Part shown: piece by piece, positions 1,053 to 58,713 of the stretch | Layout of the letters: every line of letters begins with the position of its first letter | Numbering within the stretch: the stretch's first letter is position 1 | Source of the DNA: Candidatus Magasanikiibacteriota bacterium | Lineage (GTDB): Bacteria > Patescibacteriota > Patescibacteriia > Magasanikbacterales > UBA922 | Reading direction: 5' to 3' | Length of the DNA stretch: 64,000 bases | NCBI GenBank assembly: GCA_003518365.1 | Contig: DOYU01000010.1 | Location: forward strand, 1,938 to 65,937 | Notes under the pieces: generated by a model | Database searches by the model: none | What the model was told of the DNA's origin: nothing | What the model saw: only the letters and a program-made list of their open reading frames with translations | Position numbers and translations under genes: made by a program

Positions 1053-4016
1053 ATGAAAAAAACACTGCATACTGCACAGCAAGACGCGGTAGACTATATC
1101 GATGGTCCGCTTTTGATTGTGGCAGGAGCAGGGACTGGAAAGACCACGGTGGTGACAGAAAAGATTGCAAGGCTGATCGATGATGGGAAAGCGACTCCGG
1201 AAGAAATTCTCGCTCTTACGTTTACAGAAAAGGCAGCCGCAGAAATGCAAGATCGTGTTGATGATCTGGTGTCACTCGGCTACACAGAAATGCAGATCAG
1301 CACATTTCATAGTTTTTGTCAGAAAATTCTCGAACAATACGGACTTGAAATTGGACTCCCAGATCGGTTCAAACTTTTGACTGAAACAGATGCGTGGCTG
1401 CTCATGAAAAAACATTTGTACGATTTCAAGCTTGATTATTATAGACCACTTGGCAATCCTTCCCGCCATATCCATGCACTCCTCACACACTTCAGCAAAT
1501 GCAAAGATGAATTAATCGCACCAGAAGATTATTTAGCATATGCAGAGAATGTCACACTTGACGGCGATACTACAGAGCAAGATGAAAAATCTCGATTGAC
1601 CGAACTAGCAAACACATATCACGCCTACAATCAGCTTTTGCTCGACAATCAAGCTATGGATTTTGGGGATTTAATTTTTTATACAGTAACACTCTTACGA
1701 GAACGACCTCAGATAAAGAAAAAATTGCAGCAGCAATTCAAGTACGTCCTCATCGATGAATTTCAAGATGTGAATTATGCACAATATGAGCTTGTGCAGC
1801 TTTTGACAGATAGTCCGGATGTCCAACTCACTGTGGTGGGGGATGACGATCAGAGTATCTATGCATTTCGTGGTGCAAGTGTGAGCAATATCCTGCGTTT
1901 TAAAGATGATTATCATGATGCAAAAGAAGTCGTGCTCACAGAGAATTATCGTTCTGGTCAGGCAATTTTAGATAGCGCCTACACGCTTATTCAACACAAC
2001 AACCCGGATAGACTTGAAGAAAAACTTGGTATTGAAAAAAAATTGCACGCAGCAAATGAGATTGACGCTGCAGTGACACATCTTCATGCCGCAACGCTTG
2101 ATGACGAAGTTGCTTCTGTTGTTCAACAGATACAGCAAATACAACAAACAGATAAAGATGTCACCTGGGACGATATCGCTATTTTGGTACGTGCGAATAA
2201 CCACGCAACTGTATTTATGGAGGCGCTCACCCTGGCTGGAATTCCCTATGAATTTTTGAGTTCTAGTGGATTGTATCGACAGAATATTGTGATCGATGCG
2301 GTCAATGTGTTTAAAGTCATGGATTCGTATAAGGATTCTGCTGCCATCTATCGCGTGCTCCAGATGCCATGCTTTGCATTTTCAGAGCGAGATATGCATG
2401 AGTTTTTGAGCTTTGCGAAGAAAAATTCACTGCCATATTACGAAGCGCTAAAACGGACTGATGAAATTATTCTTTCAAAAGAAGCAAAAGATACATGTAA
2501 AAAGATTGTCAAATTAATGACGTCCAGCATAAAGAAAGCAAGATTTGAAAAACCGACAACAGTATTGCATCATTTTTTTGAAGAAAGTGGCTATTTTACG
2601 TATCTCACAAAGGAAGAAGAAAAAGGAAATAGAGATGTAATACGTTCTATCGCGCATCTCAAACAATTTTTTGATTATATTCACGCGTACGAACTGACGG
2701 GTGGACATATTGATGTGAGAAGTTTTTTGGAATATTTTAACGACGTGCTCGAGAGTGGTGACAATGGAAAAGTGTATCAACCCAGTGATACGCCAGACTC
2801 CGTCAATATCATGACCGTACACGCATCAAAAGGACTCGAATTCCAATACGTTTTTGTTGTAAACTGTGTCGAAGAGAGGTTTCCAACACGACGCAAGGGC
2901 GGTGATATAGAATTGCCAGATGAACTCGTAAAAGAAGTGTTGCCAGAAGGGGATTATCATTATCAGGAAGAACGCCGTCTTTTCTACGTTGCCATGACAC
3001 GCGCAAAGAAGCAGCTCTTTCTCACCAGTGCCGACGATTATGGCGGATCAAGAAAAAAGAAAGTATCAAGGTTTGTCGCAGAAACAGGTGACACACTCGC
3101 AGCAGGACAATTTCCAATTTCTCCGACCGAGGCTGATCCCGCTTTGCGGGACAATTTCCAATCATTCATGGCAGGAAAGGCAAACAAGAATGATGAACAA
3201 CCTATTTTTGAAGGTCTATACAAACTCCCCAAAACATTCTCCTTTTCCCAAATCCGCGCATTCCAAGTCTGCCCGTATCAATACAAAATTTCGTATATTC
3301 TTAAAATCCCAATGAAAGGGTCGCATTATTTTAGTTTTGGAAATTCCATCCATCTGACCATGCAACGATTCTACGAGCGTGTGCAACAGCTCAATAGTGT
3401 CACGCAAGGATCATTATTTGATCTTGCGCCAGTTCCTGAGAAAAAAGAGGAAGGCATTGTTGTTCCTGCGCTCGATGAATTACTTACCATCTACGAAGGC
3501 GCGTGGATAGGGGATTGGTATCAGGATGAACGCCAGCGAACATGCTATCATGAAAAAGGGAAAGAACTTTTGAAAACGTTTTACAAAAAAAATGAAAATA
3601 ATTGGACCATTCCCGTGGCGCTGGAAGGTGGGTTTCGAATCAAAGTTGGAAAGCATGTTATTACTGGAAAGATAGACCGTGTTGATCAGCTTCCTGACGG
3701 AACGCTTGCAATCATAGATTATAAAACAGGCGCACCAAAAGAAAAACTCGATACAGATGATAAACAACAACTCTTGCTCTACCAAAAAGCTGCAACAGAG
3801 CTGCCACAATATCGAAATATCGGTCCTACAAGTAATCTTGTCTATTACTATATTGCCGACGATATAGAGACATCGTTTCTGGGTACAGAAAAAGAACTTG
3901 CTTCATTTGAGGATAAGATCCTGAAAACGCTCGATGAAATGCATGACACTGATTTCCGAAAGATTTCACGAGAAGATGGATGTGGACGCTGTGATGTATG
4001 TACGTCACTTATATGA
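1053..4016 (+). CDS. UvrD/PcrA-like SF1 helicase fused to C-terminal RecB/AddB/Cas4-like PD-(D/E)XK nuclease with Cys cluster
   Basis: Walker A GAGTGKT near N-terminus; UvrD-like motifs (DEFQD, VGDDDQSIY, TVHASKGLEF); C-terminal IIDYKTG nuclease motif and terminal CGRCDVC cysteines. Start moved to ATG 1053 (MKKTLH). Confidence 0.85.
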   Translation: MKKTLHTAQQDAVDYIDGPLLIVAGAGTGKTTVVTEKIARLIDDGKATPEEILALTFTEKAAAEMQDRVDDLVSLGYTEMQISTFHSFCQKILEQYGLEIGLPDRFKLLTETDAWLLMKKHLYDFKLDYYRPLGNPSRHIHALLTHFSKCKDELIAPEDYLAYAENVTLDGDTTEQDEKSRLTELANTYHAYNQLLLDNQAMDFGDLIFYTVTLLRERPQIKKKLQQQFKYVLIDEFQDVNYAQYELVQLLTDSPDVQLTVVGDDDQSIYAFRGASVSNILRFKDDYHDAKEVVLTENYRSGQAILDSAYTLIQHNNPDRLEEKLGIEKKLHAANEIDAAVTHLHAATLDDEVASVVQQIQQIQQTDKDVTWDDIAILVRANNHATVFMEALTLAGIPYEFLSSSGLYRQNIVIDAVNVFKVMDSYKDSAAIYRVLQMPCFAFSERDMHEFLSFAKKNSLPYYEALKRTDEIILSKEAKDTCKKIVKLMTSSIKKARFEKPTTVLHHFFEESGYFTYLTKEEEKGNRDVIRSIAHLKQFFDYIHAYELTGGHIDVRSFLEYFNDVLESGDNGKVYQPSDTPDSVNIMTVHASKGLEFQYVFVVNCVEERFPTRRKGGDIELPDELVKEVLPEGDYHYQEERRLFYVAMTRAKKQLFLTSADDYGGSRKKKVSRFVAETGDTLAAGQFPISPTEADPALRDNFQSFMAGKANKNDEQPIFEGLYKLPKTFSFSQIRAFQVCPYQYKISYILKIPMKGSHYFSFGNSIHLTMQRFYERVQQLNSVTQGSLFDLAPVPEKKEEGIVVPALDELLTIYEGAWIGDWYQDERQRTCYHEKGKELLKTFYKKNENNWTIPVALEGGFRIKVGKHVITGKIDRVDQLPDGTLAIIDYKTGAPKEKLDTDDKQQLLLYQKAATELPQYRNIGPTSNLVYYYIADDIETSFLGTEKELASFEDKILKTLDEMHDTDFRKISREDGCGRCDVCTSLI

Positions 4017-4528
4017 TCTATTGGATTGTCGTCATTCCAGCGTTTGGTGTCATTTTATTTATTGGGATATTTTCTTTTTGGAATCTGTATGCCATTGTAC
4101 GCGGGGCTCCATTTGTTCCCTCGGCAGCAAAACGAGTTGCGGCAATGATATCAGTTGCGCAGCTCCAAAAAACAGATGTACTCCTAGATCTAGGTTCTGG
4201 AGATGGCAGGATTGTGAGACGAGTCGCGCCGCTCGTACTCGAAGCGCGTGGTATAGAAATCAATCCCTCGCTTGTGCTCTGGTCCAGATTCATGAATGTG
4301 CTACTCCGAAAGAAAAAGATATACATTCACTGTGCAGATTTTTGGAACTACAATATTGCGGATGTGGATGTCCTATTTGTCTATTGCATTGATAGCAAAA
4401 TGAATCGACTCGAAGCAAAAATACAAAAAGAAATGAAGCCCGGATCTCGCGTGGTCTCAAACGGGTTCATATTCCCAGCTTGGACGCCTGCGAAGGAAGT
4501 GGATGGGGTGCGGTTATACCTGCTGTGA
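3998..4528 (+). CDS. small class I SAM-dependent methyltransferase with N-terminal TM segment
   Basis: Motif I LDLGSGDGR; N-terminal hydrophobic stretch; overlaps helicase stop by a few codons, start uncertain. Confidence 0.6.
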   Translation: MYVTYMIYWIVVIPAFGVILFIGIFSFWNLYAIVRGAPFVPSAAKRVAAMISVAQLQKTDVLLDLGSGDGRIVRRVAPLVLEARGIEINPSLVLWSRFMNVLLRKKKIYIHCADFWNYNIADVDVLFVYCIDSKMNRLEAKIQKEMKPGSRVVSNGFIFPAWTPAKEVDGVRLYLL

Positions 4529-46526: not shown

Positions 46527-46699
46527 TAACTCTTCAAGCTCAACGGCATCGTCCTCGTCCACACCCAAATCTTCCATGATCTCCTGCACACGCTCGGCCG
46601 TGTCCTTATCAAGATCGTGACTTTCCATAAGCTCGACGACTTCTTTGTTTGGAGCTTCTTCGGCTGGTTCATCTTTAATTGGATCGTTATCGTCTACCA
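46520..46699 (-). CDS. small highly acidic protein (59 aa), last gene of the dcm/GHKL operon (frame absent from ORF track because <60 aa)
   Basis: Own six-frame read of 46520..46699: MVDDNDPIKDEPAEEAPNKEVVELMESHDLDKDTAERVQEIMEDLGVDEDDAVELEELL; about 40% Asp/Glu. The overlapping track ORF 46463..46672 is low complexity. Confidence 0.3.
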
Positions 46700-46714
46700 T
46701 AGCCCATATTTACT

Positions 46715-48388
46715 TTAGGCTTTCCCTGATAATAATGTGATAAGTCTGCCTTTAATATTTTCATAAACCGATGTTAGCTTCTTTTTCGCCGCATCAGTTA
46801 AAAGTGCTGTGTGAGCAAGAGAGTCTCGAATTGGCTTATACTCGTTTGCGTCTCTCGCAAGACAAGCCTCCTTAGTTGGATCTTTTGCTTTATCTACGAG
46901 GTATGCGAGATCATTCATGGATAAATAACTCAAATCACTATTATTTTTACGAATACCAATACTAACGTTGCCTTTATTTTTAGACTCTGTTTCTACTTTT
47001 TTCCATTTCGCAATTTCTGTTTTTGCTTCCTTTGACAGGGTTATTTTCTTTTCACCAATATAATTTCTGATTAAATTTTCTGACACAAAACATTCCGCAT
47101 AAGAACCAAAATTATATTGGGCATCATCAGCAAGATCATTAACCCACGTGTCAATTTTCTTTTTATGTTTTGATTTTCCTGCAACTGTGTATTCTTTGGA
47201 AACAGTGTTAAATAACTCCATTGATTTCCTATCTCGAGGGGTCATTCTCTCGTTTTCTGAATCGCCATCCTTCCTGTGGGCTATTCTCCATTTGTCCCAA
47301 TCTTCAACGATTTTTAATATCACACTTTTTCGCAGAGTATCTAGAAACTTTTTATATTTTGGATCATCGGCAACCACACCCTCTCGACTACTAGTAAATA
47401 TATCATCACCACTATCAAGTTCATTGAAGTGAATCTGCCCATACAAATAATTCTCAGCTACTCGAGATGTCGGTATGTGTTTTAGGATATCTCTTTCTCG
47501 CAATCTTCCGTTTACAAAAAGGTCAATTCCGATTCTTTCCTCAGTCGTCATTATTTTAAGATCTCTTGGTCGTTCAACTGACGCAATAAATCCTTTCATT
47601 TTATTTCCTTTAAGAACGATGTCTCTTTGCTCGTTTTTTTCTGTAGTAAATCTCTTCTCAAGACTTTGAATGTAAGGATCTTTATGTTCATTTATTTTCC
47701 ATAAAAACTCTGTTTTTTCAGCAAGATCATTGAGAGATTCGTGTGTGACTTTGTCGCCATCAATAAAAATATTAAATGTTTTATCTAAAAGTGAAAAACG
47801 AAAATATAAAGCAACAATCTTTTTCAAAAATTCTAAGCTATTTTGTATGCCGTCCTTGATGCCCTCAAAATAAATTATTGTGCCGTGTTTGTGATCTTTT
47901 GTATGGGTAGCAAAAGTGCTTTCTGTCCACGATCCAAGAGAATACTCCTTGGGAGTAAGATCTTCTGTTATTGCCTTGTCCAAACCCGAGTTATCAATGA
48001 CACCACCAATATAATTGCTGGATTTAGTTTTTGAGATAACAGTTATTTTTTCCGCACAAGATAACAAGGCTAATTTACCAATACCTTTTCTGCCTATAAA
48101 AGGTCTGCCCTTAGGGGAGGCGGAACCGCCATTTTTTCTCTTTGAGTATCCAATTTTCAAAAACTTATTTTGAAAATCATCCTTTGTCATACCCAAACCA
48201 TCATCCTTAATAAAAAAGCTATTACCTTTTTTATTGATATAGATTGAGACATTTTTTGCGTCAGCATCCCATGCGTTAGAGATTGCTTCTCCGAGAACCG
48301 TTGCAAAACTTCTGTACAGATTTCTTCCTAAGTGATTTAAGACGCTCAGTGAAATCTCAAAAGAGAAATTATCATTATTGTTTTTCAT
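46715..48388 (-). CDS. GHKL-superfamily ATPase (HATPase_c_3; MORC/paraMORC-like) associated with R-M genes
   Basis: Bergerat-fold motifs: N box EAISNAWDADA, G1 IKDDGLGMT, G2 GRKGIGKLA; overlaps dcm by 14 nt. Confidence 0.7.
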   Translation of the reverse strand: MKNNNDNFSFEISLSVLNHLGRNLYRSFATVLGEAISNAWDADAKNVSIYINKKGNSFFIKDDGLGMTKDDFQNKFLKIGYSKRKNGGSASPKGRPFIGRKGIGKLALLSCAEKITVISKTKSSNYIGGVIDNSGLDKAITEDLTPKEYSLGSWTESTFATHTKDHKHGTIIYFEGIKDGIQNSLEFLKKIVALYFRFSLLDKTFNIFIDGDKVTHESLNDLAEKTEFLWKINEHKDPYIQSLEKRFTTEKNEQRDIVLKGNKMKGFIASVERPRDLKIMTTEERIGIDLFVNGRLRERDILKHIPTSRVAENYLYGQIHFNELDSGDDIFTSSREGVVADDPKYKKFLDTLRKSVILKIVEDWDKWRIAHRKDGDSENERMTPRDRKSMELFNTVSKEYTVAGKSKHKKKIDTWVNDLADDAQYNFGSYAECFVSENLIRNYIGEKKITLSKEAKTEIAKWKKVETESKNKGNVSIGIRKNNSDLSYLSMNDLAYLVDKAKDPTKEACLARDANEYKPIRDSLAHTALLTDAAKKKLTSVYENIKGRLITLLSGKA

Positions 48389-49445
48389 AATATTTTAGGT
48401 GGTTCTTGATACTCTTGCCAATGACTGATCCCAGCCTTACTGGTACTGCATTTCCAATAAACTTCGCTACTTTAGTAACTACCATAGCGTCTTCAGACTC
48501 GGTAAATTTATAATTTTCAGGGAATGTTTGAAATATTGCGGCCTCCCTTAAACTTATAGCACGATTTTGTGTTGGGTGACCAAAACGACCATTCCCTAGA
48601 CCTATACATTGTGTGGTCATAGTCGGTGCTGGTTCATCCCATCTCATCCGACCGTATACGGTGCTTCGATAGGTCTTTCCGGAAGCCTTTTTGTGACAAG
48701 TAAGCATTAGATCTTCACTCCAGCTTTCTGAATTTCCACCATTGTGGGGAGTTGCCTTGATTCTCTCAAGATTTATTGGATCAAGTTTTCTTGCCTTATG
48801 GAGAGGGTCTTTTTTGCTCGTTTGACCATCTTTGATTGGTTCAAGGTGCCTGATGACATCACGAACAGTAACTCTTTTATCCTTGTGAGTTCTTTTTATC
48901 AATTCAATTTCACCAAACCTTGAAGCCAACAAAACTAATCGTTTTCGTTTTTGCGGTACGCCAAATTCTGAAACATCTACTACTTCATATTTATATTTAT
49001 ATCCATTATCCACCAGCGTCTTAATAAACTTAGCAAAAACGGGATATTTATTTGTGTCAGCTAAACCACTAACATTTTCCATTGAGACAATGTCTGGCTG
49101 AATAGCCGCGATAAGTTGAGCAAATTTGCCCAATGGCTCAAGTTGCTTTTCAGTAACTTTTTTTAAGTTTAATCTTGAAAATGGCTGACAAGGTGCGCAA
49201 CCAGCAAGAACACGAATCGTACCCTTTTTTGTTCCAAATAATTTATTAATTTGATCAGGCGTTACCTTGAGAATATCACTATCAATAAATTGAGTTTTGT
49301 TGTTGTACTCATAACCAAATTTACAGCTTGAATCGTTATCAATTCCTGCTACCACATCTAAACCCTCCTTGATAAGACCATGTGTAAGTCCACCAATGCC
49401 ACAAAATAGATCAACGACTTTAATTTTTGAGGATTGTGATTTCAT
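48375..49445 (-). CDS. dcm: DNA (cytosine-5)-methyltransferase
   Basis: Motif I DLFCGIGG, motif IV GCAPCQPFS (PCQ), motif VI ENV (SMENVSG). Confidence 0.85.
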   Translation of the reverse strand: MKSQSSKIKVVDLFCGIGGLTHGLIKEGLDVVAGIDNDSSCKFGYEYNNKTQFIDSDILKVTPDQINKLFGTKKGTIRVLAGCAPCQPFSRLNLKKVTEKQLEPLGKFAQLIAAIQPDIVSMENVSGLADTNKYPVFAKFIKTLVDNGYKYKYEVVDVSEFGVPQKRKRLVLLASRFGEIELIKRTHKDKRVTVRDVIRHLEPIKDGQTSKKDPLHKARKLDPINLERIKATPHNGGNSESWSEDLMLTCHKKASGKTYRSTVYGRMRWDEPAPTMTTQCIGLGNGRFGHPTQNRAISLREAAIFQTFPENYKFTESEDAMVVTKVAKFIGNAVPVRLGSVIGKSIKNHLKYYEKQ

Positions 49446-49467
49446 ACTAACAATAATTATATCAGTT

Positions 49468-49486
49468 TATCGAAAATTTTTCGATA
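49468..49486. promoter_or_regulatory. perfect 9-bp palindrome TATCGAAAA-t-TTTTCGATA upstream of dcm
   Basis: Located 23 nt upstream of the dcm start in the 105-nt gap between operons; candidate operator. Confidence 0.35.
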
Positions 49487-49550
49487 GCAAATCTTGCTTA
49501 TTTTTACTGAGTAAGTCCAGTACTTTCACTTTTAGGGTAATCTTGAGCTA

Positions 49551-51086
49551 TTATACCGTACTGTATAAAACGGAATTATTTTCAACGTGGGTTAAAAATT
49601 CCTCGATTGTTTTTGGCAAGATCGAAAGATTCTCTTTCTCCTTAACATAATTAATCTGCATTACAGAATCTTTGAATATGCTAGGGGCCACAAAGTAACA
49701 CATAGAATCCTTTGTACCTTTTTGGAATTGGCTCAAATGTCTTGAGATCGGCCACACTTCCATCATAGTTTGCATGCGTCCCTCCGACATTGTAACTTCG
49801 ACTAATATACCCTTAACATCCTCGAAACATTCAATGTCACCCTTATCTCCAACGCCTCCAGCTGTTGATGTTGGGAGACCTTCATCGTCGTAAGGATAGT
49901 TTGATACCACTCTAACATTTGGAAACTTGGATTTAATAGCCAAAGACACAAGAAACTCTAATCTGACAGGATTTGATAAGTATTTCAAAACATCATCTTT
50001 TGTTAATCTCTTCTTGGCCAAATTTAACATTTCATCTTTAATCCTGTTCCAAGGATAAATACCAACCCACTTAGCCAAAAAGGCGTCTCTCTCGCCGACA
50101 CTTACCGGCTTGGCAACAAACGAGATAAGATTTTCATCCACAGCCGACATATACTCAAAATATGATTCCTCTGTGGTGTATTTTTTATAATCAGAATAAG
50201 TTGCTAAAGCATAATCAACCTTAGTTTGTTCATTTCTGTTTATATCAATAAAACGACCAGCACCTCTTAATGAGATCAATCCTGTTAATCTCATTTTTCT
50301 AATAAACTCATCCGGATAGTCAACCATTATCGACTTCGGATTAAATTTCTTAAAATCACCGTCCATGATCTGGTTAACACAAATATCCACAATAACTTCC
50401 CAGCTCGGGGTATAGCCGTGTTCTTTTCTGATTTTCTTTATAAGTTTGTAAAGCTTCTCGGCGTCGTTATCTTTCCAGAAAATAACCAAGGGCAATTCTA
50501 ATTTTGAAATTCCGGTCCCGTTTAAATCCTTGTCAGCATTTATTTTATTAATCACACTCAGTAGTAAAATCAGCGGTGCATTTTCATTGAGTACTCGCCT
50601 GAATGGACTATTGCTTTGATATTTTACAAATGCATTCAGAAAAGCCTGTTGTTCAAATTCTGGGTGTTCGTTATCAACCAATTTTAATCCAATATCAGAA
50701 AATCTTATCTTTTCACCGTTTTTGTAATAAACAAAACCAAGCTCTTTGGCAATCTTAAACCAAGTATCAAACCGAGAAGCCCAGCCCTTACTAAAACCGG
50801 CTTCTTTATGATTTTGCGGATTATCCTCAAGAACCTTTTTCACTTCAGAATCAGACAACGGCTCTTTTGTTTCAATTTTATTCTTTACAACAGCACTTAT
50901 GTTAGTCGGCTTATATAGTCCGACCCGAATAACTTCACCGGAGATTTCTTCAGCCAACTGATCGTCAAGCACTTTTCCGTTGTAATCTTTAAGTACTCCC
51001 AAAAACCACTTAAGCCTTTCTGGGTTTCTAAGTGTAGTAGTAAATAATAATGGTTTATATTCTGATTCTCTTGTTTTTGTTTTCAT
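49551..51086 (-). CDS. hypothetical 511-aa protein; candidate restriction endonuclease partner of the two adjacent adenine methyltransferases
   Basis: No methyltransferase motifs; possible PD-(D/E)XK-like stretch GDKGDIECFEDVK near C-terminus; operon context with two alpha-class N6A methyltransferases. Confidence 0.4.
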   Translation of the reverse strand: MKTKTRESEYKPLLFTTTLRNPERLKWFLGVLKDYNGKVLDDQLAEEISGEVIRVGLYKPTNISAVVKNKIETKEPLSDSEVKKVLEDNPQNHKEAGFSKGWASRFDTWFKIAKELGFVYYKNGEKIRFSDIGLKLVDNEHPEFEQQAFLNAFVKYQSNSPFRRVLNENAPLILLLSVINKINADKDLNGTGISKLELPLVIFWKDNDAEKLYKLIKKIRKEHGYTPSWEVIVDICVNQIMDGDFKKFNPKSIMVDYPDEFIRKMRLTGLISLRGAGRFIDINRNEQTKVDYALATYSDYKKYTTEESYFEYMSAVDENLISFVAKPVSVGERDAFLAKWVGIYPWNRIKDEMLNLAKKRLTKDDVLKYLSNPVRLEFLVSLAIKSKFPNVRVVSNYPYDDEGLPTSTAGGVGDKGDIECFEDVKGILVEVTMSEGRMQTMMEVWPISRHLSQFQKGTKDSMCYFVAPSIFKDSVMQINYVKEKENLSILPKTIEEFLTHVENNSVLYSTV

Positions 51087-51090
51087 ATAT

Positions 51091-51996
51091 TTAATAATTG
51101 GTAATTAACACTTCCTTGATCTGTTTCTTACCGTTATTGTGATAGCTGATATAATTGCTTTCAATTTTGTGCGTCTTATATTTTTTCATCCAATCAATCA
51201 GTAAATCATTTTTACTTCCGTTATAATGGGTTACATTTGATAGGGCAAACTTTATACCCTTCTTATCCAAATCATCAATCATCCCCAGCAAGTCGGCTTC
51301 AGCTTTTTGATCCCACCGCTTGTTGTATTCGCTTGCTGTTATCAGATAGGGTGGATCTAAATAAACGAAATCATTCTTAGAATATTTCCGGTTTGCAAAA
51401 TAAGCTCTGAAGTCCTTTGAACTTAAAGTCATCTTCTTATCTTGCACAAAATCAAAATAACCATTCAGAGCGTTAACAACATTTTTATTAAAATCGACAT
51501 TGCCAACCGGTAAATTAAATTTACCACCACCATTAAACCTCAACATTCTATTAAAACCATAGATAAGTAGAATATACAGAATTAAAGGATCATTCTTTAT
51601 GTGTTTATTTACGCAAACTCTTAATTTTTCGTAGCCCTCTTTATTAAATTTGGCAAAATAGGTCTTTTTCCATTCTTTTTTTAACGAGACCGGAATTATA
51701 TCTTCTTTATAAGATCGTGATAGGTGATATTTCTTGATTATCTTTTCTACATTCTTAAAAAATAAAGTTGGGTTATTTGCACTATTAATTAAGAAACGAT
51801 GTATGTTGATTAAATTTTTATCGTTATCATTTAAGTAGTATTTATTTGCGTTAATATTTAAAAAGACAGTACCACCGCCGACAAATGGTTCGTAAAAATT
51901 GTCTACTTCCTGTGGAAATAAACCAGCCAGTTGCTTCATTAATTTGTATTTATCCCCGACATAAAATAGCGGGGATCTCTTAATTTTATTTTGCAT
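51091..51996 (-). CDS. Dam-family (D12-class, alpha) N6-adenine DNA methyltransferase
   Basis: Motif X YVGDKYKL, motif I EPFVGGGTVFLN, motif IV DPPY (VYLDPPYLIT). Confidence 0.8.
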   Translation of the reverse strand: MQNKIKRSPLFYVGDKYKLMKQLAGLFPQEVDNFYEPFVGGGTVFLNINANKYYLNDNDKNLINIHRFLINSANNPTLFFKNVEKIIKKYHLSRSYKEDIIPVSLKKEWKKTYFAKFNKEGYEKLRVCVNKHIKNDPLILYILLIYGFNRMLRFNGGGKFNLPVGNVDFNKNVVNALNGYFDFVQDKKMTLSSKDFRAYFANRKYSKNDFVYLDPPYLITASEYNKRWDQKAEADLLGMIDDLDKKGIKFALSNVTHYNGSKNDLLIDWMKKYKTHKIESNYISYHNNGKKQIKEVLITNY

Positions 51997-53803
51997 GGTT
52001 TACGGTGGTTACAAATAAATACTCTTTATGGTTTTTGAAATCGGTATTGCCAGCGTTGAAATGCCTGTAGTCTTTTTCAAAGACTTTAGTTTTTCCCTTT
52101 GCCGATAAAATATCCTTGATCTCTTGTAGAGTAATTTTATTTTTTGATGAATTGCTTTTTGAATCGTAAGTATTATTGTAAGACACGACTAAATACTTGG
52201 CATTCAAATCTTTTACTAATTCGGCAAGCCTGTCTTTTGCTTGAACACGGCAATAATCGCTCATATTTTCCTCCTGAGGCTTCAGGGCGGTCCCAAACAA
52301 CTCTGGCTTATCCCATTTCGTTAAAGTTTCTAGGACATGGTAGAAACGACTATACTGCCTCGAGTTATAGGGTGGATCAATATAAACAATGTCAGCTTTA
52401 ATTTTTTTAGCTAAGAGGTTCGTATCTTCTTTATAAATTGTGACATTTTTTACTTCAATCGGATCAATAGGTCTCATAAAAAATCCGTCTTCGACATGTT
52501 CTTTTTTGAAATATGCATCATAGTGACCAACTGTATTGGCAACCTTATCGATTGAATACAATAACGAAGCAATAAGAATATAATATTCTTTATCCGACAG
52601 GTTCTTTCTGTTTTCCTCTATAGTTTCTCTAATGAACCCTATTATTTTGGCTGAGTTGTGGCTAAAATACTTACCGCCAAAATTAGTAGAAAAATAATTA
52701 TTCTCTAAATCACCACCGTCAATGTTGTTGTAGTCTTTGATAATATTTTCAATCTTGTTTTTATCCCATTCTCCATTGCCAAAAAAGGCTTGATAAATTG
52801 CATAGTTAGAATGTAAAAAATCGTTAAGAATGATTTCATCATAGTGTCTGGCCGCAACAGCCGAAACCACTCCGGTCCCAGCAAAAATATCAGCGAAAGA
52901 GTTGCCTTTTTCGCACTCCTTATTAATTACGGAAAATATCCATTCAATAAGTTTGTGCTTACTGCCAATATATCGGCGGTTTTGTAATTGTAAATAATTC
53001 TTTTTTACCTGTGGAATATAAAAATAATTCTCCTGTACTTTTTCGGCACTTATTTCGTAAGCTGGTTTTTCAAGCTCTAAAAGAGCAAACAAAGTTCCTT
53101 GTACACCGTCAGCTACATAGTCATAACTCTTTTTATCTTTGCTTAATTTTTCAAAAAAGCTACAGCTTCCGTTCTCCGCTGTGATAATAAAATCAATAAC
53201 AGCAATGCCCATTATCTCTCCAGCTTGGGATATTTTTTGTACCACCTCAATATCTCTTGTACTGGGAGATGAATCTCCGGAGGGGTGATTATGAACTAAT
53301 ATGATACTAGCGGAGTTAAGTTCTACTGCTGGATGAAAAATTTCTCTGGGATGTATTAAGCTTTTATCTAGCAAACCTACACTAATAATTTCTTTCTTTA
53401 TCAAAACATTTCTGGCGTTAAGATAAAGACACACTAAATATTCCTTTTTCTTGTCTCGTAGATCGTATGTTAAAGATAAAACATCCTGTTGGTTTTTTAT
53501 GATAGTGTCGCCACCTTTTTCTTCATCATAAAATCTTTTTACTAATGAAATGGCAGAAATAATTTGTAAGGCCTTGGCTTGCCCAATACCAGAAACCTCT
53601 AATAGGTCTTCAACTTTAATATTTAAAAAATTCTTGCCAAATTTCTTAATAATCTGTTCTGATAGCTGTTTAACATTTTTGCCTTTAATCCCACTACCCA
53701 GAAGAATCGCCAAAAGATCACTCTTTGAAAGTGCTTCTGATCCTTTTTTAAGGAACCTCTCTCGAGGACGATCTATTTTGGGGATGTCTTTTATTTTTGG
53801 CAT
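51986..53803 (-). CDS. fusion: RadC-like JAB/MPN domain (N) + alpha-class N6-adenine DNA methyltransferase (C)
   Basis: RadC signature HNHPSGDSSPSTRD preceded by an HhH-like region; then YIGSKHKL (motif X), DIFAGTGVVS (motif I), VYIDPPYNS (motif IV). Confidence 0.75.
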   Translation of the reverse strand: MPKIKDIPKIDRPRERFLKKGSEALSKSDLLAILLGSGIKGKNVKQLSEQIIKKFGKNFLNIKVEDLLEVSGIGQAKALQIISAISLVKRFYDEEKGGDTIIKNQQDVLSLTYDLRDKKKEYLVCLYLNARNVLIKKEIISVGLLDKSLIHPREIFHPAVELNSASIILVHNHPSGDSSPSTRDIEVVQKISQAGEIMGIAVIDFIITAENGSCSFFEKLSKDKKSYDYVADGVQGTLFALLELEKPAYEISAEKVQENYFYIPQVKKNYLQLQNRRYIGSKHKLIEWIFSVINKECEKGNSFADIFAGTGVVSAVAARHYDEIILNDFLHSNYAIYQAFFGNGEWDKNKIENIIKDYNNIDGGDLENNYFSTNFGGKYFSHNSAKIIGFIRETIEENRKNLSDKEYYILIASLLYSIDKVANTVGHYDAYFKKEHVEDGFFMRPIDPIEVKNVTIYKEDTNLLAKKIKADIVYIDPPYNSRQYSRFYHVLETLTKWDKPELFGTALKPQEENMSDYCRVQAKDRLAELVKDLNAKYLVVSYNNTYDSKSNSSKNKITLQEIKDILSAKGKTKVFEKDYRHFNAGNTDFKNHKEYLFVTTVNHAK

Positions 53804-53806
53804 ATT

Positions 53807-54055
53807 TTAATTCTTCTTTTTGGTTTTAATATTACTTGTCTCATCCAAAAAAGCATTGAGATCAGATTGCTTGATACGCCAAACACCAAGCTTGGATGCC
53901 TTTAACCTGCCCGACTCGATATATCGGGTGACAGTGCGTGTATGAACTCTTAAAATTTTGGCGATTTCTTCTATTGTGAAAAGTTTTTCAATTTCGTTCA
54001 TAAGAATTATATTAGTCGTTGATATCATTTTACCTCTTCTGCTTTTCATTGTCAA
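53807..54055 (-). CDS. excisionase-family HTH DNA-binding protein (Xis/AlpA/MerR-like)
   Basis: LFTIEEIAKILRVHTRTVTRYIESGRLKASKLGVWRIKQSDLNAFL matches the excisionase-family HTH pattern. Confidence 0.6.
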   Translation of the reverse strand: MTMKSRRGKMISTTNIILMNEIEKLFTIEEIAKILRVHTRTVTRYIESGRLKASKLGVWRIKQSDLNAFLDETSNIKTKKKN

Positions 54056-54174
54056 AATCGCCGTATTTTGTCATAATACACTTGTGGGGTTGAGTAATCA
54101 GATATTACCGACTCAATCCCTATATCCAAAAATTAGTGAATGGCTGGCATAAAATGGGTCCCATTCACTAAAAA

Positions 54175-54909
54175 ATGAACTGGGAAGTAAGGATTAGGCT
54201 TGCATCCAGTAAAAACATGACTATGAAAATGAAAAAGGCCTCAAAGACCACAAAATACAAATTCAACATAAAGAAAATTGTCTCTAAGTCAATGACTTAC
54301 CGTTTTTCTCTCGGAATAGTTAAAGATGTTGTAAAAAATGCTCTGGAAAATTCCGGTATCAAAAATTCGGATGATATTATAAAGAGGCACGAGGACGAGA
54401 TCGTAGAGCTAAAAGATAGGCTAAACAAAACAGACACTAAATTTGAAAGCTATAAAAAAGAGACTAACAAAACAATTGCCGAATTAAAAGATGAACTGGG
54501 AAAAGTTAGTAAACAGAACCTGACTCAGATCGGCCGAGAAATGGCTATCGGTTTTTATGAACAGAGCCAAAAGATACGGTCCAAACAGAAAGAAAAGAAA
54601 ACTAAAGAAACTTTGCTCTGCCTCTCCTCAGACGGCGATCTATACCTAGCGTCCAATCAACAAAAATGTTATCCGATGAGTAAAGAGAAAATGCGTGAGA
54701 AATTGATAAAAGTTTTATGCTCGGCCAAAGGTTATATCAAGACGGCCGAGTTGGCTGAAATGGTCGGCACGACCAATCAAGCGATTAGAAATTCCAAGCT
54801 GGAGATAAATAATAAATCTAAAAATCGGATTGGCATTGATAAACTGATTATCGGCCGTGACGGCAATGGCTATCGCTTAAATCCAGAATATAAAATCAAA
54901 ATACTATAG
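54175..54909 (+). CDS. hypothetical coiled-coil protein with possible C-terminal winged-helix
   Basis: 244-aa ORF divergent from the Xis-like gene; followed by terminator. Confidence 0.4.
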   Translation: MNWEVRIRLASSKNMTMKMKKASKTTKYKFNIKKIVSKSMTYRFSLGIVKDVVKNALENSGIKNSDDIIKRHEDEIVELKDRLNKTDTKFESYKKETNKTIAELKDELGKVSKQNLTQIGREMAIGFYEQSQKIRSKQKEKKTKETLLCLSSDGDLYLASNQQKCYPMSKEKMREKLIKVLCSAKGYIKTAELAEMVGTTNQAIRNSKLEINNKSKNRIGIDKLIIGRDGNGYRLNPEYKIKIL

Positions 54910-54942
54910 CGTAATAGTCGGTGTAGTTAATAACTTCAATGA

Positions 54943-54970
54943 GAGAGCCTGAAATAGGGCTCTTTTTTGT
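54943..54970 (+). terminator. rho-independent terminator (agagcc-tgaaata-gggctct + T-run)
   Basis: Hairpin followed by tttttt. Confidence 0.55.
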
Positions 54971-55055
54971 TGCCCAACTACACCTGGGCATTATTCCAAG
55001 AGATGGGCAACGATTGGCAAACTATAAATGTGTGAGAGTAAAAAAATGAAATGAT

Positions 55056-55307
55056 ATGCCAATCAAACAAAGTGAGAGTTTCAAGACCGCCGATCTGGCA
55101 TTGATCGCGGTGCTTTTATTATTAATGCCCGAATCTCTTGAGGTCGTGGATCGGACAAATCCGCATAAGGTCCTCTTTGGATTTAAAACTGACCGCAAGC
55201 TCGAAAAGCTTATGGACAGTTTTTGGAAACGAGAGCTTGTGGTCGAACCTCAAGCGTTCTTTAACCAAATCAAAATCGCCAAAGCCAGGATCTATGTCCA
55301 CGAATAA
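55056..55307 (+). CDS. hypothetical protein (island cargo)
   Basis: 83-aa ORF in GC-richer segment. Confidence 0.35.
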   Translation: MPIKQSESFKTADLALIAVLLLLMPESLEVVDRTNPHKVLFGFKTDRKLEKLMDSFWKRELVVEPQAFFNQIKIAKARIYVHE

Positions 55308-55309
55308 AT

Positions 55310-55519
55310 ATGAAGTTAAAACCGGAAACGCTGGAAAAACTCCGAGCGATTCTCAAAAAAGACTTTGGCCAAGAAGTGAATGATCAAGACCTCCACGATA
55401 TCGCATTCAATCTCGTGAGTTATTACGACGCTCTGTCGCGATTCTACTGGGAGGATATCACGAGCGGTCGAAAGCTTATAGAACCATATGACACAGTACC
55501 CGAGCGACAAACCACATAA
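55310..55519 (+). CDS. hypothetical protein (island cargo)
   Basis: 69-aa ORF directly following the previous one. Confidence 0.3.
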   Translation: MKLKPETLEKLRAILKKDFGQEVNDQDLHDIAFNLVSYYDALSRFYWEDITSGRKLIEPYDTVPERQTT

Positions 55520-56060
55520 GATCAGAGATTATCGCGAATTGCCGTTTGCTTACCAAGATAAGCCAGCTTTGCGGTACATGCGACAACAATGGCTCGATAA
55601 GCACATTAGCATTGATGCCTACCGGAATCTCCGGAACATGTATCTGGCTTTGACTGAGATTGCCTCCAACAAAGCCAGTCAAACCATAGAGGCGTCCAAC
55701 AAAACGCTTTTGATTTATTCCGGACTCAAAGACTGGCGAACGATTAAGAATTGTTTGTCCAAGCTCGAGGAGTGGGCTTTTATCGCGATCACAAAAACTC
55801 GGGGCGAGGATGCAAAGTTCAAGCCCCGAGGTATCACTTTGCTGTCCGTCCTACATCTGACGCAGGGTGGAAACCAATCAGCATCAAAAGCCGGACGGCA
55901 TAGCACGCAGACTGCCTCCGGTGCAGAAGATATAGAAGGTAATGGATTAAAAGAAATTAAAGAAAATAATAAAGAAATTAACGGCCGGTCCAAGAATTTA
56001 AAACTCTTGGCCGAGGCGAGAGCCAAACTCGTAGCTAAGATGACCCTACAAAACAAATGA
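55488..56060 (+). CDS. hypothetical protein, possible DNA-binding/replication-related (island cargo)
   Basis: 190-aa ORF; basic N-terminal half; no firm motif. Confidence 0.35.
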   Translation: MTQYPSDKPHKIRDYRELPFAYQDKPALRYMRQQWLDKHISIDAYRNLRNMYLALTEIASNKASQTIEASNKTLLIYSGLKDWRTIKNCLSKLEEWAFIAITKTRGEDAKFKPRGITLLSVLHLTQGGNQSASKAGRHSTQTASGAEDIEGNGLKEIKENNKEINGRSKNLKLLAEARAKLVAKMTLQNK

Positions 56061-56148
56061 TTTTCGGTTATAAACGGCAACATTTGGCAACGAAATGAGC
56101 AAAAAACCGATAATAAATAATCATTAAACGATACTAAATGATACCTAA

Positions 56149-56622
56149 ATGGCTAAATCTGTAGACATAAAAAATGAAAAATATCAGAATGCGATCCGCT
56201 TAAAATATGGCGATTTTACTTATTTAGAGATTGCCCGGATGCTTAAAGTTTCTCATGTCAGTGTAAAGAGATGGTTTCGGTCAGACGGCTTACTGAAAGA
56301 CGAATACGACCGATATGAAAAAGAAAGAAACCGTGTACGCGACAAAGAGACTGATACTGTGCTGGCGAGACATTCTGTAATTGCGGCCAATATTCTGGTC
56401 TCGCTTATGGGTGCCAAAAGCGATGTCATGAAATTCAGAGCTGTTAAAGCCATTTTGGATTATGTACTGGGTCCAGTAAGAACCATGGGCAGTGACGATC
56501 CTTACGATAACGCCGATTATCGGCGAGATAGCGACAGTATTGCGAGAATACTGGAAAGTGCTAGGAAAAGACAACAAAAATCCACTGTGGGCAACTCGAG
56601 CTTAGCTTGTCCGAAAAAATAG
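56149..56622 (+). CDS. HTH-domain protein (possible phage terminase small subunit-like or regulator)
   Basis: N-terminal HTH-like YLEIARMLKVSHVSVKRW. Confidence 0.35.
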   Translation: MAKSVDIKNEKYQNAIRLKYGDFTYLEIARMLKVSHVSVKRWFRSDGLLKDEYDRYEKERNRVRDKETDTVLARHSVIAANILVSLMGAKSDVMKFRAVKAILDYVLGPVRTMGSDDPYDNADYRRDSDSIARILESARKRQQKSTVGNSSLACPKK

Positions 56623-56681
56623 CGTATGTTGTGTCTTGAGACCAAAAGTCGAATTCGAACCTTAGTAAAATTAACAAAATT

Positions 56682-58469
56682 ATGACTATGACAATGCAAA
56701 ACGAAAATGAATCGATGCGAGCCGTAGGATATGCCCGTGTCTCCTCCAAGGATCAAGAGGACACTGGATACTCACTACCGGCTCAAGAAAAACTTCTACA
56801 CGATTATGCCGACAGAAACGGTTTTGATCTGGTAAAAGTTTTTGCTATTCAAGAATCGGCGGCCGGAAAAATCCAACGAAAGATATTCCACGAGATGTTG
56901 GACTATGTGACCAAAGCCAAGATCAATACGATCTTCGTGGAAACCACCGACCGTTTAACCCGTAACTTCGCTGATGTGCCGATAATTGACGAATGGATAC
57001 TGGCGGATGAAAAGCACACCATTCATCTGGTAAAAGAAGGCTGTACCTTACACAAAGACTCCAAGTCCCACGAATGGTTTATGTGGCGAGTCAAAGTGGC
57101 TACGGCCGAATATTATATCCGACTCCTTTCCGAGAATGTGAAAAAGGGGCAGAAAGAAAAATTGGCTCAAGGCTGGCTACCAAGCAAACCGCCACTGGGA
57201 TACCAGACCACTGGCGAGAAAGGACACAAAATCCATATCATTGATCCGGACAAATCGCCACTGGTCAAAAAGATGTTTGACCTTTACGCCTCCAATCGCT
57301 ACTCAACCAAAAAGCTGGCCGATGAAATGCATAAGCTTGGCATGCGGTCTCGAGGAGGAAATAAAGTCAGTCATTCAAGAGTCCACCAACTACTGGGCGA
57401 TCCGTTTTATTATGGAATGAATCGCTGGAACGGCAAAGTCGCTCAAGGCGGACACGAACCGCTGATAACCAAAGAATTATTCATGCGATGCCAAGACATA
57501 ATGCATAGCAACGGTACGCCGAAATACAACAAGCACAATCCGTTATTTAAAAATGTCTTCCACTGTGAGGAATGCAAAGGCCGGATAACTTGGGAGATAC
57601 AAAAAGGCCACTGGTATGGCCACTGCAACCATTATAAAAACTGCCAGCAAAAGGAATGGGTCAAACAAGAGAACATTGACCTGCAAGTAATGGAAAATAT
57701 CGAGCATTTAAGCTCAAAGCACAACGAGGCCATAGAGAATATGCTCACTTGGGTCCAAGAGGCACTCAAAGAAAGCCACGGCGAGGAGATAGAATTCCGA
57801 CAAAAGGCCACTGGCGAACTTGAGCGACGCTACCAAGTCGCCACGCAAAGACTGGATAAGATATACGATGACAAGATAGACGGCAAGATCAGCGAGGACT
57901 TCTACCAGAAAAAGTACCAGCAGTACAAAATTGAACAAGAGGAAGTGTTGGACGGACTGAATAAGCACAAAAATGCCAACCTCAAGTATTACGATATGGG
58001 GTCAACCTTTTTACAAATGGCCAAAGAGGCAAGGAGAATTTATTTGAACCGAAGCACGATTGAAATGGTCGACGACAAGAAACAACTTTTGTCCCTTTTA
58101 TTTTCGAACCCTATAATAAATGGCAAGAAAGTTGAGATTTCATACCAGAAAGCCTTCAAAATGGTATTTGAACGAGTATCACAGATGTTGGGAGAAAATA
58201 CAGACGAAAATACAACATTCGAACCGCTGAAAAAGCCCGTAGATAAAGAGAAAAGCAGAGCTTTTGGCTCTGCTCATCCCATATGGCTCGACGGGTGGGA
58301 CTCGAACCCACGACCAATTGGTTACACGTCATCCACAATTTTCATTGCGGCGTGGACTATATCATCACCCTCGCCTATTTCCGATCATGTCGGAATCGTT
58401 AGGGTGCGAAGCGCTTCCCCTGCATCAAATATGTTCGAACAAGGTACTCCCCGAAGGGATAGTCTCTGA
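56682..58469 (+). CDS. large serine recombinase (resolvase/invertase N-domain + recombinase domain + zinc ribbon)
   Basis: Catalytic Ser region GYARVSSKDQ; zinc ribbon CEECKGR...HCNHYKNC; the last ~60 codons are antisense to the tRNA-Asn 3' exon and intron. Confidence 0.8.
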   Translation: MTMTMQNENESMRAVGYARVSSKDQEDTGYSLPAQEKLLHDYADRNGFDLVKVFAIQESAAGKIQRKIFHEMLDYVTKAKINTIFVETTDRLTRNFADVPIIDEWILADEKHTIHLVKEGCTLHKDSKSHEWFMWRVKVATAEYYIRLLSENVKKGQKEKLAQGWLPSKPPLGYQTTGEKGHKIHIIDPDKSPLVKKMFDLYASNRYSTKKLADEMHKLGMRSRGGNKVSHSRVHQLLGDPFYYGMNRWNGKVAQGGHEPLITKELFMRCQDIMHSNGTPKYNKHNPLFKNVFHCEECKGRITWEIQKGHWYGHCNHYKNCQQKEWVKQENIDLQVMENIEHLSSKHNEAIENMLTWVQEALKESHGEEIEFRQKATGELERRYQVATQRLDKIYDDKIDGKISEDFYQKKYQQYKIEQEEVLDGLNKHKNANLKYYDMGSTFLQMAKEARRIYLNRSTIEMVDDKKQLLSLLFSNPIINGKKVEISYQKAFKMVFERVSQMLGENTDENTTFEPLKKPVDKEKSRAFGSAHPIWLDGWDSNPRPIGYTSSTIFIAAWTISSPSPISDHVGIVRVRSASPASNMFEQGTPRRDSL

Positions 58470-58713
58470 ACCTTTTTCCATGTATGGACGCACATACGTT
58501 TCTCTCTCAAGGAGAGTGCTCTTATGCACACCTATATAATCATACCTGAAAACTTGGCTGCGAATTGCCATACAGATCCACAAGGGATCTGCGAAGGGTT
58601 CTCGCAATTCACTTCGTTGGCATCCTTCTGTTTCTAGAAGGAGCTGCTAGTGCGCCTAGATTGCTCTATACGTCTATTTACAGCCAACTGCTCTACCGCT
58701 GAGCTACCGTCGA
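58284..58713 (-). tRNA. tRNA-Asn(GTT) interrupted by a group I intron in the anticodon loop (exons 58680..58713 and 58284..58324)
   Basis: 5' exon TCGACGGTAGCTCAGCGGTAGAGCAGTTGGCTGT; 3' exon TAACCAATTGGTCGTGGGTTCGAGTCCCACCCGTCGAGCCA; acceptor, D, anticodon and T stems pair; spliced anticodon loop CUGUUAA. Confidence 0.7.
58325..58679 (-). ncRNA. group I self-splicing intron (355 nt) within tRNA-Asn
   Basis: Conserved group I core R element GTTCAGAGACTA (plus 58460..58471) and S element GATATAGTCC (plus 58354..58363) forming P7; 5' exon ends in U, intron ends in G; internal guide GCAGCU can pair with exon end GGCUGU. Confidence 0.7.

Follow-up and report, generated by a model that had tools for sequence, protein, structure and literature searches.

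A predicted AlwI-family Type IIS restriction-modification cassette with a RadC-methyltransferase fusion in a Patescibacteriota genome

AlwI-family systems and the three-gene cassette

The Type IIS restriction enzymes AlwI and MlyI are class I homodimerising enzymes (PMC3017599), and members of the AlwI family come with two methyltransferases, one per DNA strand (PMC9799307). The Caldicellulosiruptor systems CsaDORF2754P (GASTC) and the SfaNI-like R.Cal02329 consist of an AlwI-family endonuclease with M1 and M2, one per strand, and the reports on them mention no RadC fusion (PMC9799307). A locus that resembles these systems, as judged from their published description, was analysed in a 64,000-nucleotide (nt) stretch of contig DOYU01000010.1 from a Candidatus Magasanikiibacteriota bacterium, hereafter the window. 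Three genes on its minus strand, between positions 49551 and 53803, very probably form an AlwI-family Type IIS restriction-modification (R-M) operon that is cargo of an integrated element of ~12 kb with a serine integrase. An earlier reading made from the letters alone (the sequence-only reading) had proposed a Type IIS-like module at this place; its observation was correct and its interpretation essentially so. The three genes and their domains, with lengths and residues in amino acids (aa), are:

49551 to 51086, minus strand: R, predicted AlwI-family Type IIS restriction endonuclease, 511 aa (PF09491, PADLOC, AlphaFold2 model)
49590 to 49976, minus strand: C-terminal cleavage domain of R (aa ~371-499) with E377, D417, E430-V-T432 and E443 (alignment to N.BspD6I and the BspD6I small subunit)
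51091 to 51996, minus strand: M2, D12/alpha-class N6-adenine DNA methyltransferase of the Dam subfamily, 301 aa (PF02086, TIGR00571)
51986 to 53803, minus strand: RadC-M1 fusion protein, 605 aa, a single uninterrupted open reading frame (ORF)
51998 to 52996, minus strand: methyltransferase domain of M1 (aa 270-602), D12/alpha class (PF02086, PADLOC PDLC03373)
53150 to 53497, minus strand: RadC-type JAB domain of M1 (aa 103-218) with an intact E...HxH...S..D metal-binding motif (PF04002, PDB 2qlc)
53570 to 53794, minus strand: RadC N-terminal domain of M1 (UPF0758_N, aa 4-78; PF20582)

The ORF list and Pfam confirmed the layout seen in the letters: two D12 methyltransferases, one of them fused to RadC, lie co-oriented and closely packed with a 511-aa ORF in which Pfam finds no methyltransferase domain. 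The M1 and M2 genes share 11 nt, and a gap of 4 nt lies between M2 and R. The G+C content of the block is 34%, against 41% in the remaining window. These are real genes and not chance ORFs, because their homologues at 74-98% identity number in the hundreds and the three-gene block is shared with unrelated contigs at 76-80% DNA identity.

R matches PF09491 (RE_AlwI) with an E-value of 1.8e-42 (146.3 bits against a cutoff of 23.1) and, over its full length, the REBASE-derived PADLOC profile REase_II PDLC03507 (E=1.3e-127). Its homologues number in the thousands, the closest 120 clusters being 74-98% identical, and several bear the NCBI name 'AlwI family type II restriction endonuclease'. R is accordingly not the new endonuclease family that the sequence-only reading had considered, and no clear homology to a non-nuclease family was found; it belongs to the AlwI family and is a predicted Type IIS restriction endonuclease. 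RE_AlwI is also the Pfam family of AlwI (GGATC 4/5), MlyI and PleI (GAGTC), so that the likeness to these enzymes is one of family. They have one catalytic site per chain, N-terminal recognition, C-terminal cleavage and adenine methylases for both strands, an organisation that is predicted here as well; the difference is the RadC module borne by M1.

The C-terminal 100 residues of R align, among solved structures, with the nickase N.BspD6I's catalytic domain and with the small subunit of BspD6I. Counted along the alignment, D456, E469-V-T471 and E482 of N.BspD6I correspond to D417, E430-V-T432 and E443 of R, and a Glu of the small subunit is aligned to E377 of R. Judged by their titles alone, PDB entries of the D456A and E418A variants of N.BspD6I suggest that these positions are functionally important. 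Across 25 R homologues from different phyla, the mean identity per column is 82%; E377, D417, E430 and E443 never vary, and T432 is kept in at least 90%. The stretch GDKGDIECFEDVK, previously pointed out as a candidate PD-(D/E)XK core, does hold the catalytic Asp, D417 within 'GDKGD', which aligns with D456 of N.BspD6I; the (D/E)XK element, on the other hand, is E430-V-T432, 13 residues downstream, and not E422-D-V-K425.

Structure prediction agreed with the profile searches. An AlphaFold2 model of R was built on the 25 homologues, and Foldseek returned N.BspD6I as its best PDB match (E=3e-14), with further matches to FokI (E=2e-6) and to the BspD6I small subunit 2p14 (target-normalised template modelling (TM) score of 0.65). 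N.BspD6I/N.BstNBI (PDB 2ewf, 6qnz) and the small subunit are thus the best match of R among solved structures in both structure and sequence, although sequence similarity to N.BspD6I is low (36 bits by phmmer; ~17-18% identity in the structure-based alignment) and N.BspD6I is longer, at 604 aa against 511 aa. The model suggests a FokI/BspD6I-like architecture, in which an N-terminal recognition region would be followed by a C-terminal cleavage domain of the PD-(D/E)XK type. The overall fold is FokI-like, but R falls in the AlwI family and not in the FokI family.

Both methylases match MethyltransfD12 (PF02086, cutoff 22 bits), M1 with E=5.2e-36 (125 bits) and M2 with E=5.3e-27 (95.6 bits). Their alpha class, already assigned from the letters, holds for both, as motif I precedes motif IV in each: M1 has FAGTG at 307-311 and DPPY at 476-479, both invariant in 16 aligned fusions, and the translation of M2 carries FVGGG and then DPPY. 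In PADLOC, M1 matches PDLC03373 (E=6.8e-133) and M2 matches MTase_II PDLC03383 (E=1.6e-106); the two proteins are 25% identical. With 140.5 bits, M2 clears the cutoff of the Dam-subfamily model TIGR00571 (114.85), which M1 does not reach (28.6); against the E. coli Dam equivalog NF008152, M2 stays below the cutoff (54.9 against 441). The nearest solved relative of M2 is T4 Dam (140 bits), while the methylase domain of M1 is more divergent among D12 proteins, and the part of M1 outside RadC has no PDB sequence match at E<=0.001.

Against the PADLOC profiles for two-domain Type II methyltransferases, PDLC03287 and PDLC03292 (646 aa and 722 aa), M1 corresponds to the N-terminal half and M2 to the C-terminal half. 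When 1.8 billion representatives were scanned with the M1 domain, many proteins of 630-750 aa with two matched stretches were returned, and the two that were inspected each contain two D12 domains, that is, natural M1-M2 fusions. Because of these half-profile matches and two-domain proteins, M1 and M2 are predicted to be a split version of the two-domain fused methylases found in asymmetric-site systems. This arrangement fits one methylase per strand, and M1 and M2 would each be specific to one strand of an asymmetric site. M.FokI is the classic fused methylase, with one domain per strand; the methylase domains of the present locus, unlike those of the FokI system, are separate genes. A GATC specificity for M2, based on its likeness to T4 Dam, was considered and rejected. 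The C-terminal half of the two-domain profile scores higher (201 bits) than the 259-aa orphan-methylase profile PDLC03722 (147 bits), which we take to be T4-Dam-like, and GATC specificity therefore cannot be inferred. The methyltransferases do not present as orphan Dam homologues independent of a nuclease. The AlwI-family assignment of R, the half-profile matches and the published precedent (PMC9799307) together bear out the proposal of a Type IIS-like module in which one nuclease would be joined by two strand-specific adenine methyltransferases.

The distribution of the cassette provides further evidence. A scan of GTDB, with one genome per species, yielded 80 loci with an R relative at 45-95% identity, spanning Patescibacteria, Omnitrophota, Gammaproteobacteria, Planctomycetia, Bacteroidota, Elusimicrobia and other groups. 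Gene order was counted in the 68 loci that had enough upstream sequence, and the order M1-M2-R was found in 64 of them. Six loci (L001, L003, L010, L014, L015 and L016) have the same three genes in the same order, with the RadC fusion, in entirely different flanks; L009 has the same genes and order, again in different flanks, without RadC. Positions 49587-53868 are the sole stretch of the window that aligns at the DNA level to another contig, at 80% identity. As DNA homology is confined to the cassette, the cassette is a discrete mobile unit whose ends lie close to 49551-53803. Such cassettes travel as discrete three-gene units between very distant phyla.

Plasmids of cultured bacteria carry annotated orthologues of the cassette. 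In S. epidermidis (NZ_CP069955) and L. lactis (NZ_CP065734), genes named 'DNA adenine methylase', 'Dam family methyltransferase' and 'AlwI family type II restriction endonuclease' follow one another in that order, equivalent to M1-M2-R, and Helicobacter plasmids (NZ_AP024822) have the same genes as M2-R-M1. The S. epidermidis proteins are 56% (M1 domain), 48% (M2) and 40% (R) identical to those of the window. The M1 proteins of the Staphylococcus, Lactococcus and Helicobacter plasmids are 348-412 aa long and have no RadC.

In addition, ~20 loci (L057, L059-L062, L064-L072, L074, L080, L081, L085) combine RadC-M1 and M2 that are 75-84% identical to those of the window with an R that is only ~50% identical; these R proteins are collinear and keep the catalytic residues. 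The pattern points either to a much faster divergence of R than of its methylases or to an exchange of R genes. Separately, a 282-aa DUF4357 protein, absent from the window, lies directly upstream of RadC-M1 or downstream of R in many related cassettes (L014 1434-2282; L059 1425-2273; 15 of the 80 GTDB loci), and its N-terminus looks GIY-YIG-like by eye.

The RadC module on M1

The RadC module fused to M1 is the cassette's only unusual feature. In Pfam, the 605-aa protein contains UPF0758_N (PF20582, E=2.3e-22) and the RadC JAB domain (PF04002, E=1.7e-35) in addition to its D12 domain; UPF0758_N has been termed helix-hairpin-helix (HhH) (PMC3239186). Its N-terminal 220 aa pass both the RadC equivalog NF000642 (211.3 against a cutoff of 180) and TIGR00608 (200.4 against 133.85), and the JAB domain matches the solved RadC structure 2qlc at 86 bits and keeps the JAMM-type motif. 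Canonical RadC, which is widespread in bacteria, is a stand-alone protein of ~220 aa, whereas here it shares one ORF with a methyltransferase domain of ~340 aa in an R-M operon.

The fusion is not an assembly accident. Its architecture and length are common to more than 120 clusters at >=77% identity, RadC directly precedes M1 in 45 of 64 related cassettes, and the metal-binding residues E154, H171, H173, S181 and D184 are invariant in 16 fusions, one of which is only 41% identical. Of the forms met in the sampled close relatives, the one with RadC is the most frequent. The basic system can nevertheless do without RadC, since the other 19 of the 64 cassettes have none. L009 is one such case: its R is 78% identical, and its M1, of 386 aa, starts at the linker and has a methyltransferase domain that is 66% identical.

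M1 proteins of this family carry interchangeable N-terminal modules: none, HTH_3, a full LexA, HhH only, or a full RadC. Two confirmed ORFs, the M1 genes of L050 (482 aa, 2634-4082) and L043 (445 aa, 144-1481), have lost the JAB domain and kept UPF0758_N in their first ~90-110 aa. A third JAB-less variant, in L052, was seen as a tblastn match only. Among sister M1 proteins, the N-terminus is occupied by HTH_3, by a complete LexA (DNA-binding domain plus S24 peptidase) or by an AAA_21 ATPase, and the LexA-M1 gene adjoins an AlwI-family nuclease. In the S. epidermidis M1, an N-terminal extension of ~80 aa resembles a helix-turn-helix by eye. Read most simply, M1 can accommodate a DNA-binding module at its N-terminus and often gains from it. 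As a separate observation, in L012 (3121-8282) and L013 the genes after the LexA-M1 D12 methylase code for an AlwI-family nuclease of 646 aa, an N6_N4 methylase and a methyl-dependent nuclease resembling DpnI.

On M1, the RadC module would most likely contribute extra DNA binding that is not sequence-specific, or DNA processing. Published RadC fusions involve HhH, ArdC, primase and DinG helicase, and a role in nucleic-acid processing has been proposed for RadC without biochemical proof (PMC3239186, PMC5512222). No description of a RadC-D12 methylase fusion was found in the literature searched, whose coverage was incomplete, so that this absence is weak evidence.

It is possible, though not the likelier case, that RadC is a functional regulatory or targeting device that couples M1, or expression of the operon, to single-stranded or damaged DNA from the position held elsewhere by HTH_3 or LexA. 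The invariance of the JAB metal motif, even in the fusion that is only 41% identical, the presence of the fusion in 45 of 64 cassettes, the placement of HTH_3 or a full LexA at the same N-terminal position in sister M1 proteins (the LexA version next to an AlwI-family nuclease) and the retention of the DNA-binding part in the HhH-only variants are all consistent with such a device. Set against this are the cassettes that lack RadC beside an R that is 78% identical, the loss of the JAB domain in some lineages and the fact that no biochemical function has been established for RadC (PMC5512222, PMC3239186); positional equivalence is, moreover, an argument and not a test. It is doubtful that RadC (HhH plus JAB) is a working part of the R-M system, whether by loading M1 onto single-stranded, newly replicated or incoming DNA or as a DNA-binding plus peptidase/nuclease switch that is positionally like LexA and HTH_3.

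As an R-M system the locus carries little weight: it is ordinary, one more predicted AlwI-family Type IIS enzyme, with a potentially useful specificity, from uncultured Patescibacteria-like organisms. The RadC-methylase fusion alone might repay experiment. Methylase output can be read by sequencing and so gives a direct assay for an effect of the RadC domain; if RadC does work in an R-M system, the cassette would offer a simple, genetically tractable setting in which to study RadC-type JAB function.

Predicted mechanism, nicking and decay, and the recognition site

The N-terminal two-thirds of R would bind an asymmetric site of ~5 bp; cleavage, by the C-terminal PD-(D/E)XK-type domain, would fall on one side of it, a short fixed distance of a few bases away. 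With one catalytic site per chain, R, like AlwI and MlyI, would probably dimerise transiently in order to cleave both strands. The strands of an asymmetric site differ in sequence and so call for two methylases, one per strand; M1 and M2 would each methylate adenine (N6) on one strand and thereby protect host DNA.

Several points weigh against this reading. The structure model of R is of moderate confidence only (predicted local distance difference test (pLDDT) of 73; TM ~0.5 to N.BspD6I). T432 stands where the canonical (D/E)XK element has Lys, although the same Thr-for-Lys replacement is present in the active nickase N.BspD6I. The sequence of R does not separate double-strand cutting from nicking. 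Finally, GGATC, GAGTC and GATC are not depleted in the window or in pooled related loci: in the window alone, the observed/expected ratio (O/E) of GATC, GGATC, GAGTC and GGATG is 0.90-1.03, and in eight pooled cassette-bearing loci it is 0.96 for GGATC and 0.92 for GAGTC. With no such depletion there is no restriction footprint in the genome, nor would one be expected of an island that was acquired recently.

The question of strand cutting bears on one alternative, that R is a strand-specific nicking enzyme like N.BstNBI/N.BspD6I, acting alone or with a separate small catalytic subunit. The closest solved structure to R is indeed a nickase, R also aligns to the BspD6I small subunit, and the determinants of dimerisation are not readable from its sequence. 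However, no gene for a small subunit of the heterodimeric BspD6I/BstNBI type lies beside R, the downstream gene differs in every locus examined, and no small ORF is conserved there. The similarity to N.BspD6I is low, at 36 bits, and a nickase by itself would be of little use as a barrier to foreign DNA, yet the distribution of the cassette is very wide. A nicking R is therefore regarded as quite unlikely.

Still less probable, to the point of being very unlikely, is a decaying or 'orphaned' cassette in which the methylases are functional, as epigenetic or anti-restriction cargo, and R is inactive. Such a state would agree with the lack of site avoidance in host DNA and with the occurrence of RadC-type domains in mobile-element proteins acting at DNA entry, of which they are typical (PMC5512222, PMC3239186). 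But R is full length, with invariant catalytic residues and the high column identity given above (82% in 25 homologues), and it is kept beside M1 and M2 in 64 of the 68 assessable loci.

Type IIS D12 enzymes typically act on sites like GGATC, GGATG, GCATC or CCATC. In the pooled loci, CCATC/GATGG has an O/E of 0.82 (z=-2.95, rank 6 of 512), which is not significant after correction for all 5-mers, and is a lead only. An assignment to the HpyC1I/BccI family was tried from this lead, and nothing usable was found. The most under-represented 5-mer in the same loci is CCAGG/CCTGG (O/E 0.65, z=-4.8), which is also the lowest in the window alone. Neither CCAGG/CCTGG nor CCATC/GATGG was linked to a particular enzyme.

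The host island and neighbouring genes

The cassette lies in a low-GC island of ~12 kb, at ~46600-58280 (0.375 against 0.411). The island holds a second R-M module, an excisionase-like HTH_17 gene, several genes without a family match and a large serine integrase:

46715 to 48388, minus strand: GHKL-ATPase protein, 557 aa (HATPase_c_3, E=8.9e-22)
48375 to 49445, minus strand: C5-cytosine DNA methyltransferase, 356 aa (PF00145, E=1.3e-57)
53807 to 54001, minus strand: HTH_17 (excisionase/MerR-like) gene, likely coding sequence of 64 aa from the ATG at 54001 (PF12728, E=1e-15; PHROG excisionase families)
54027 to 54055, minus strand: best sigma-70-like promoter match upstream of HTH_17/M1, TTGACA-17-TAAAAT, 11 of 12 positions (consensus match only)
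56682 to 58469, plus strand: large serine integrase (Resolvase and Recombinase domains; PHROG phrog_95, E=6.7e-74, residues 3-493 only)

The GHKL and C5 methylase genes are best read as a second, independent R-M module, in which the GHKL protein is the probable partner of the C5 methylase. The two genes overlap by 14 nt, and a gap of 105 nt with a promoter-like site (49484-49456) separates the C5 methylase gene from R. On the Paracoccus plasmid NZ_CP025411, the gene of a full-length GHKL homologue of 49% identity likewise overlaps one for a cytosine methylase, and the vicinity holds no AlwI gene. The GHKL protein scores 307 bits against the BbrUII/HgiDII model NF050001, below its cutoff of 550 and over positions 1-369 of 659 only, and matches two PADLOC Type II endonuclease profiles, including REase_II PDLC03419 (E=5.6e-44). 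It is related to BbrUII/HgiDII-type restriction enzymes through its N-terminal GHKL region only; its C-terminal ~190 aa have no family match.

The sequence-only reading had also raised the GHKL ATPase as a partner of R, with the 511-aa protein as its effector. This pairing, and with it a composite five-gene defence system, is dismissed as extremely improbable: the GHKL, C5 and cassette genes are adjacent and co-oriented, but the cassette occurs without the GHKL and C5 genes in all other loci inspected gene by gene (L001, L003, L009, L010, L014, L015 and L016), DNA homology to other contigs ends at the cassette ends, the GHKL protein itself matches Type II endonuclease profiles, and the overlap, the promoter-bearing gap and the solitary Paracoccus pair all tie it to the C5 methylase.

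The final ~70 codons of the integrase ORF run into the 3' exon of a tRNA gene (58284-58713, minus strand) that has a group I intron of 355 nt in its anticodon loop (Rfam RF00028, 77.9 bits). The tRNA was found by ARAGORN in intron mode and missed without it; the exact position of splicing decides whether it is Asn(GTT) or Tyr(GTA). No convincing attachment (att)-type direct repeat was found between 45 and 59 kb, so the island ends are approximate and were set from GC content, the integrase and the tRNA. Serine integrases are not known to leave long direct repeats, and none would be expected.

The HTH_17 gene stops 3 nt ahead of the M1 start, and the ORF tool starts it further upstream, at a TTG (54055). 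A role as conserved cassette controller was considered for it and rejected: tblastn against the 80 GTDB loci gave one weak match only. In the gene tables, an HTH_17 gene lies close upstream of the cassette in just two other loci, L003 and L014. Because it is not conserved with the cassette elsewhere, the gene probably belongs to the island. A related cassette in Harrisonbacteria likewise adjoins an HTH_17 gene and a serine recombinase. In total, the region has no more sigma-70-like matches than are expected from shuffled sequence.

Elsewhere, the cassette is often found next to other genes of defence or mobility. Across L014 (6570-9468), L016 (7726-11527) and L015 (8901-10462), these include SIR2_2 with DUF87, a Type III-like set of a ResIII protein and a nearby N6_N4 methylase, and a diversity-generating retroelement made up of bAvd and a reverse transcriptase. 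In the window, an 18-nt repeat, TAAAAAATGAACTGGGAA, occurs in three copies of 83-100% identity, 153-163 nt apart, at 54169-54502 on the plus strand; the copies lie at the start of and inside a 244-aa ORF (54175-54909) that has no family match.

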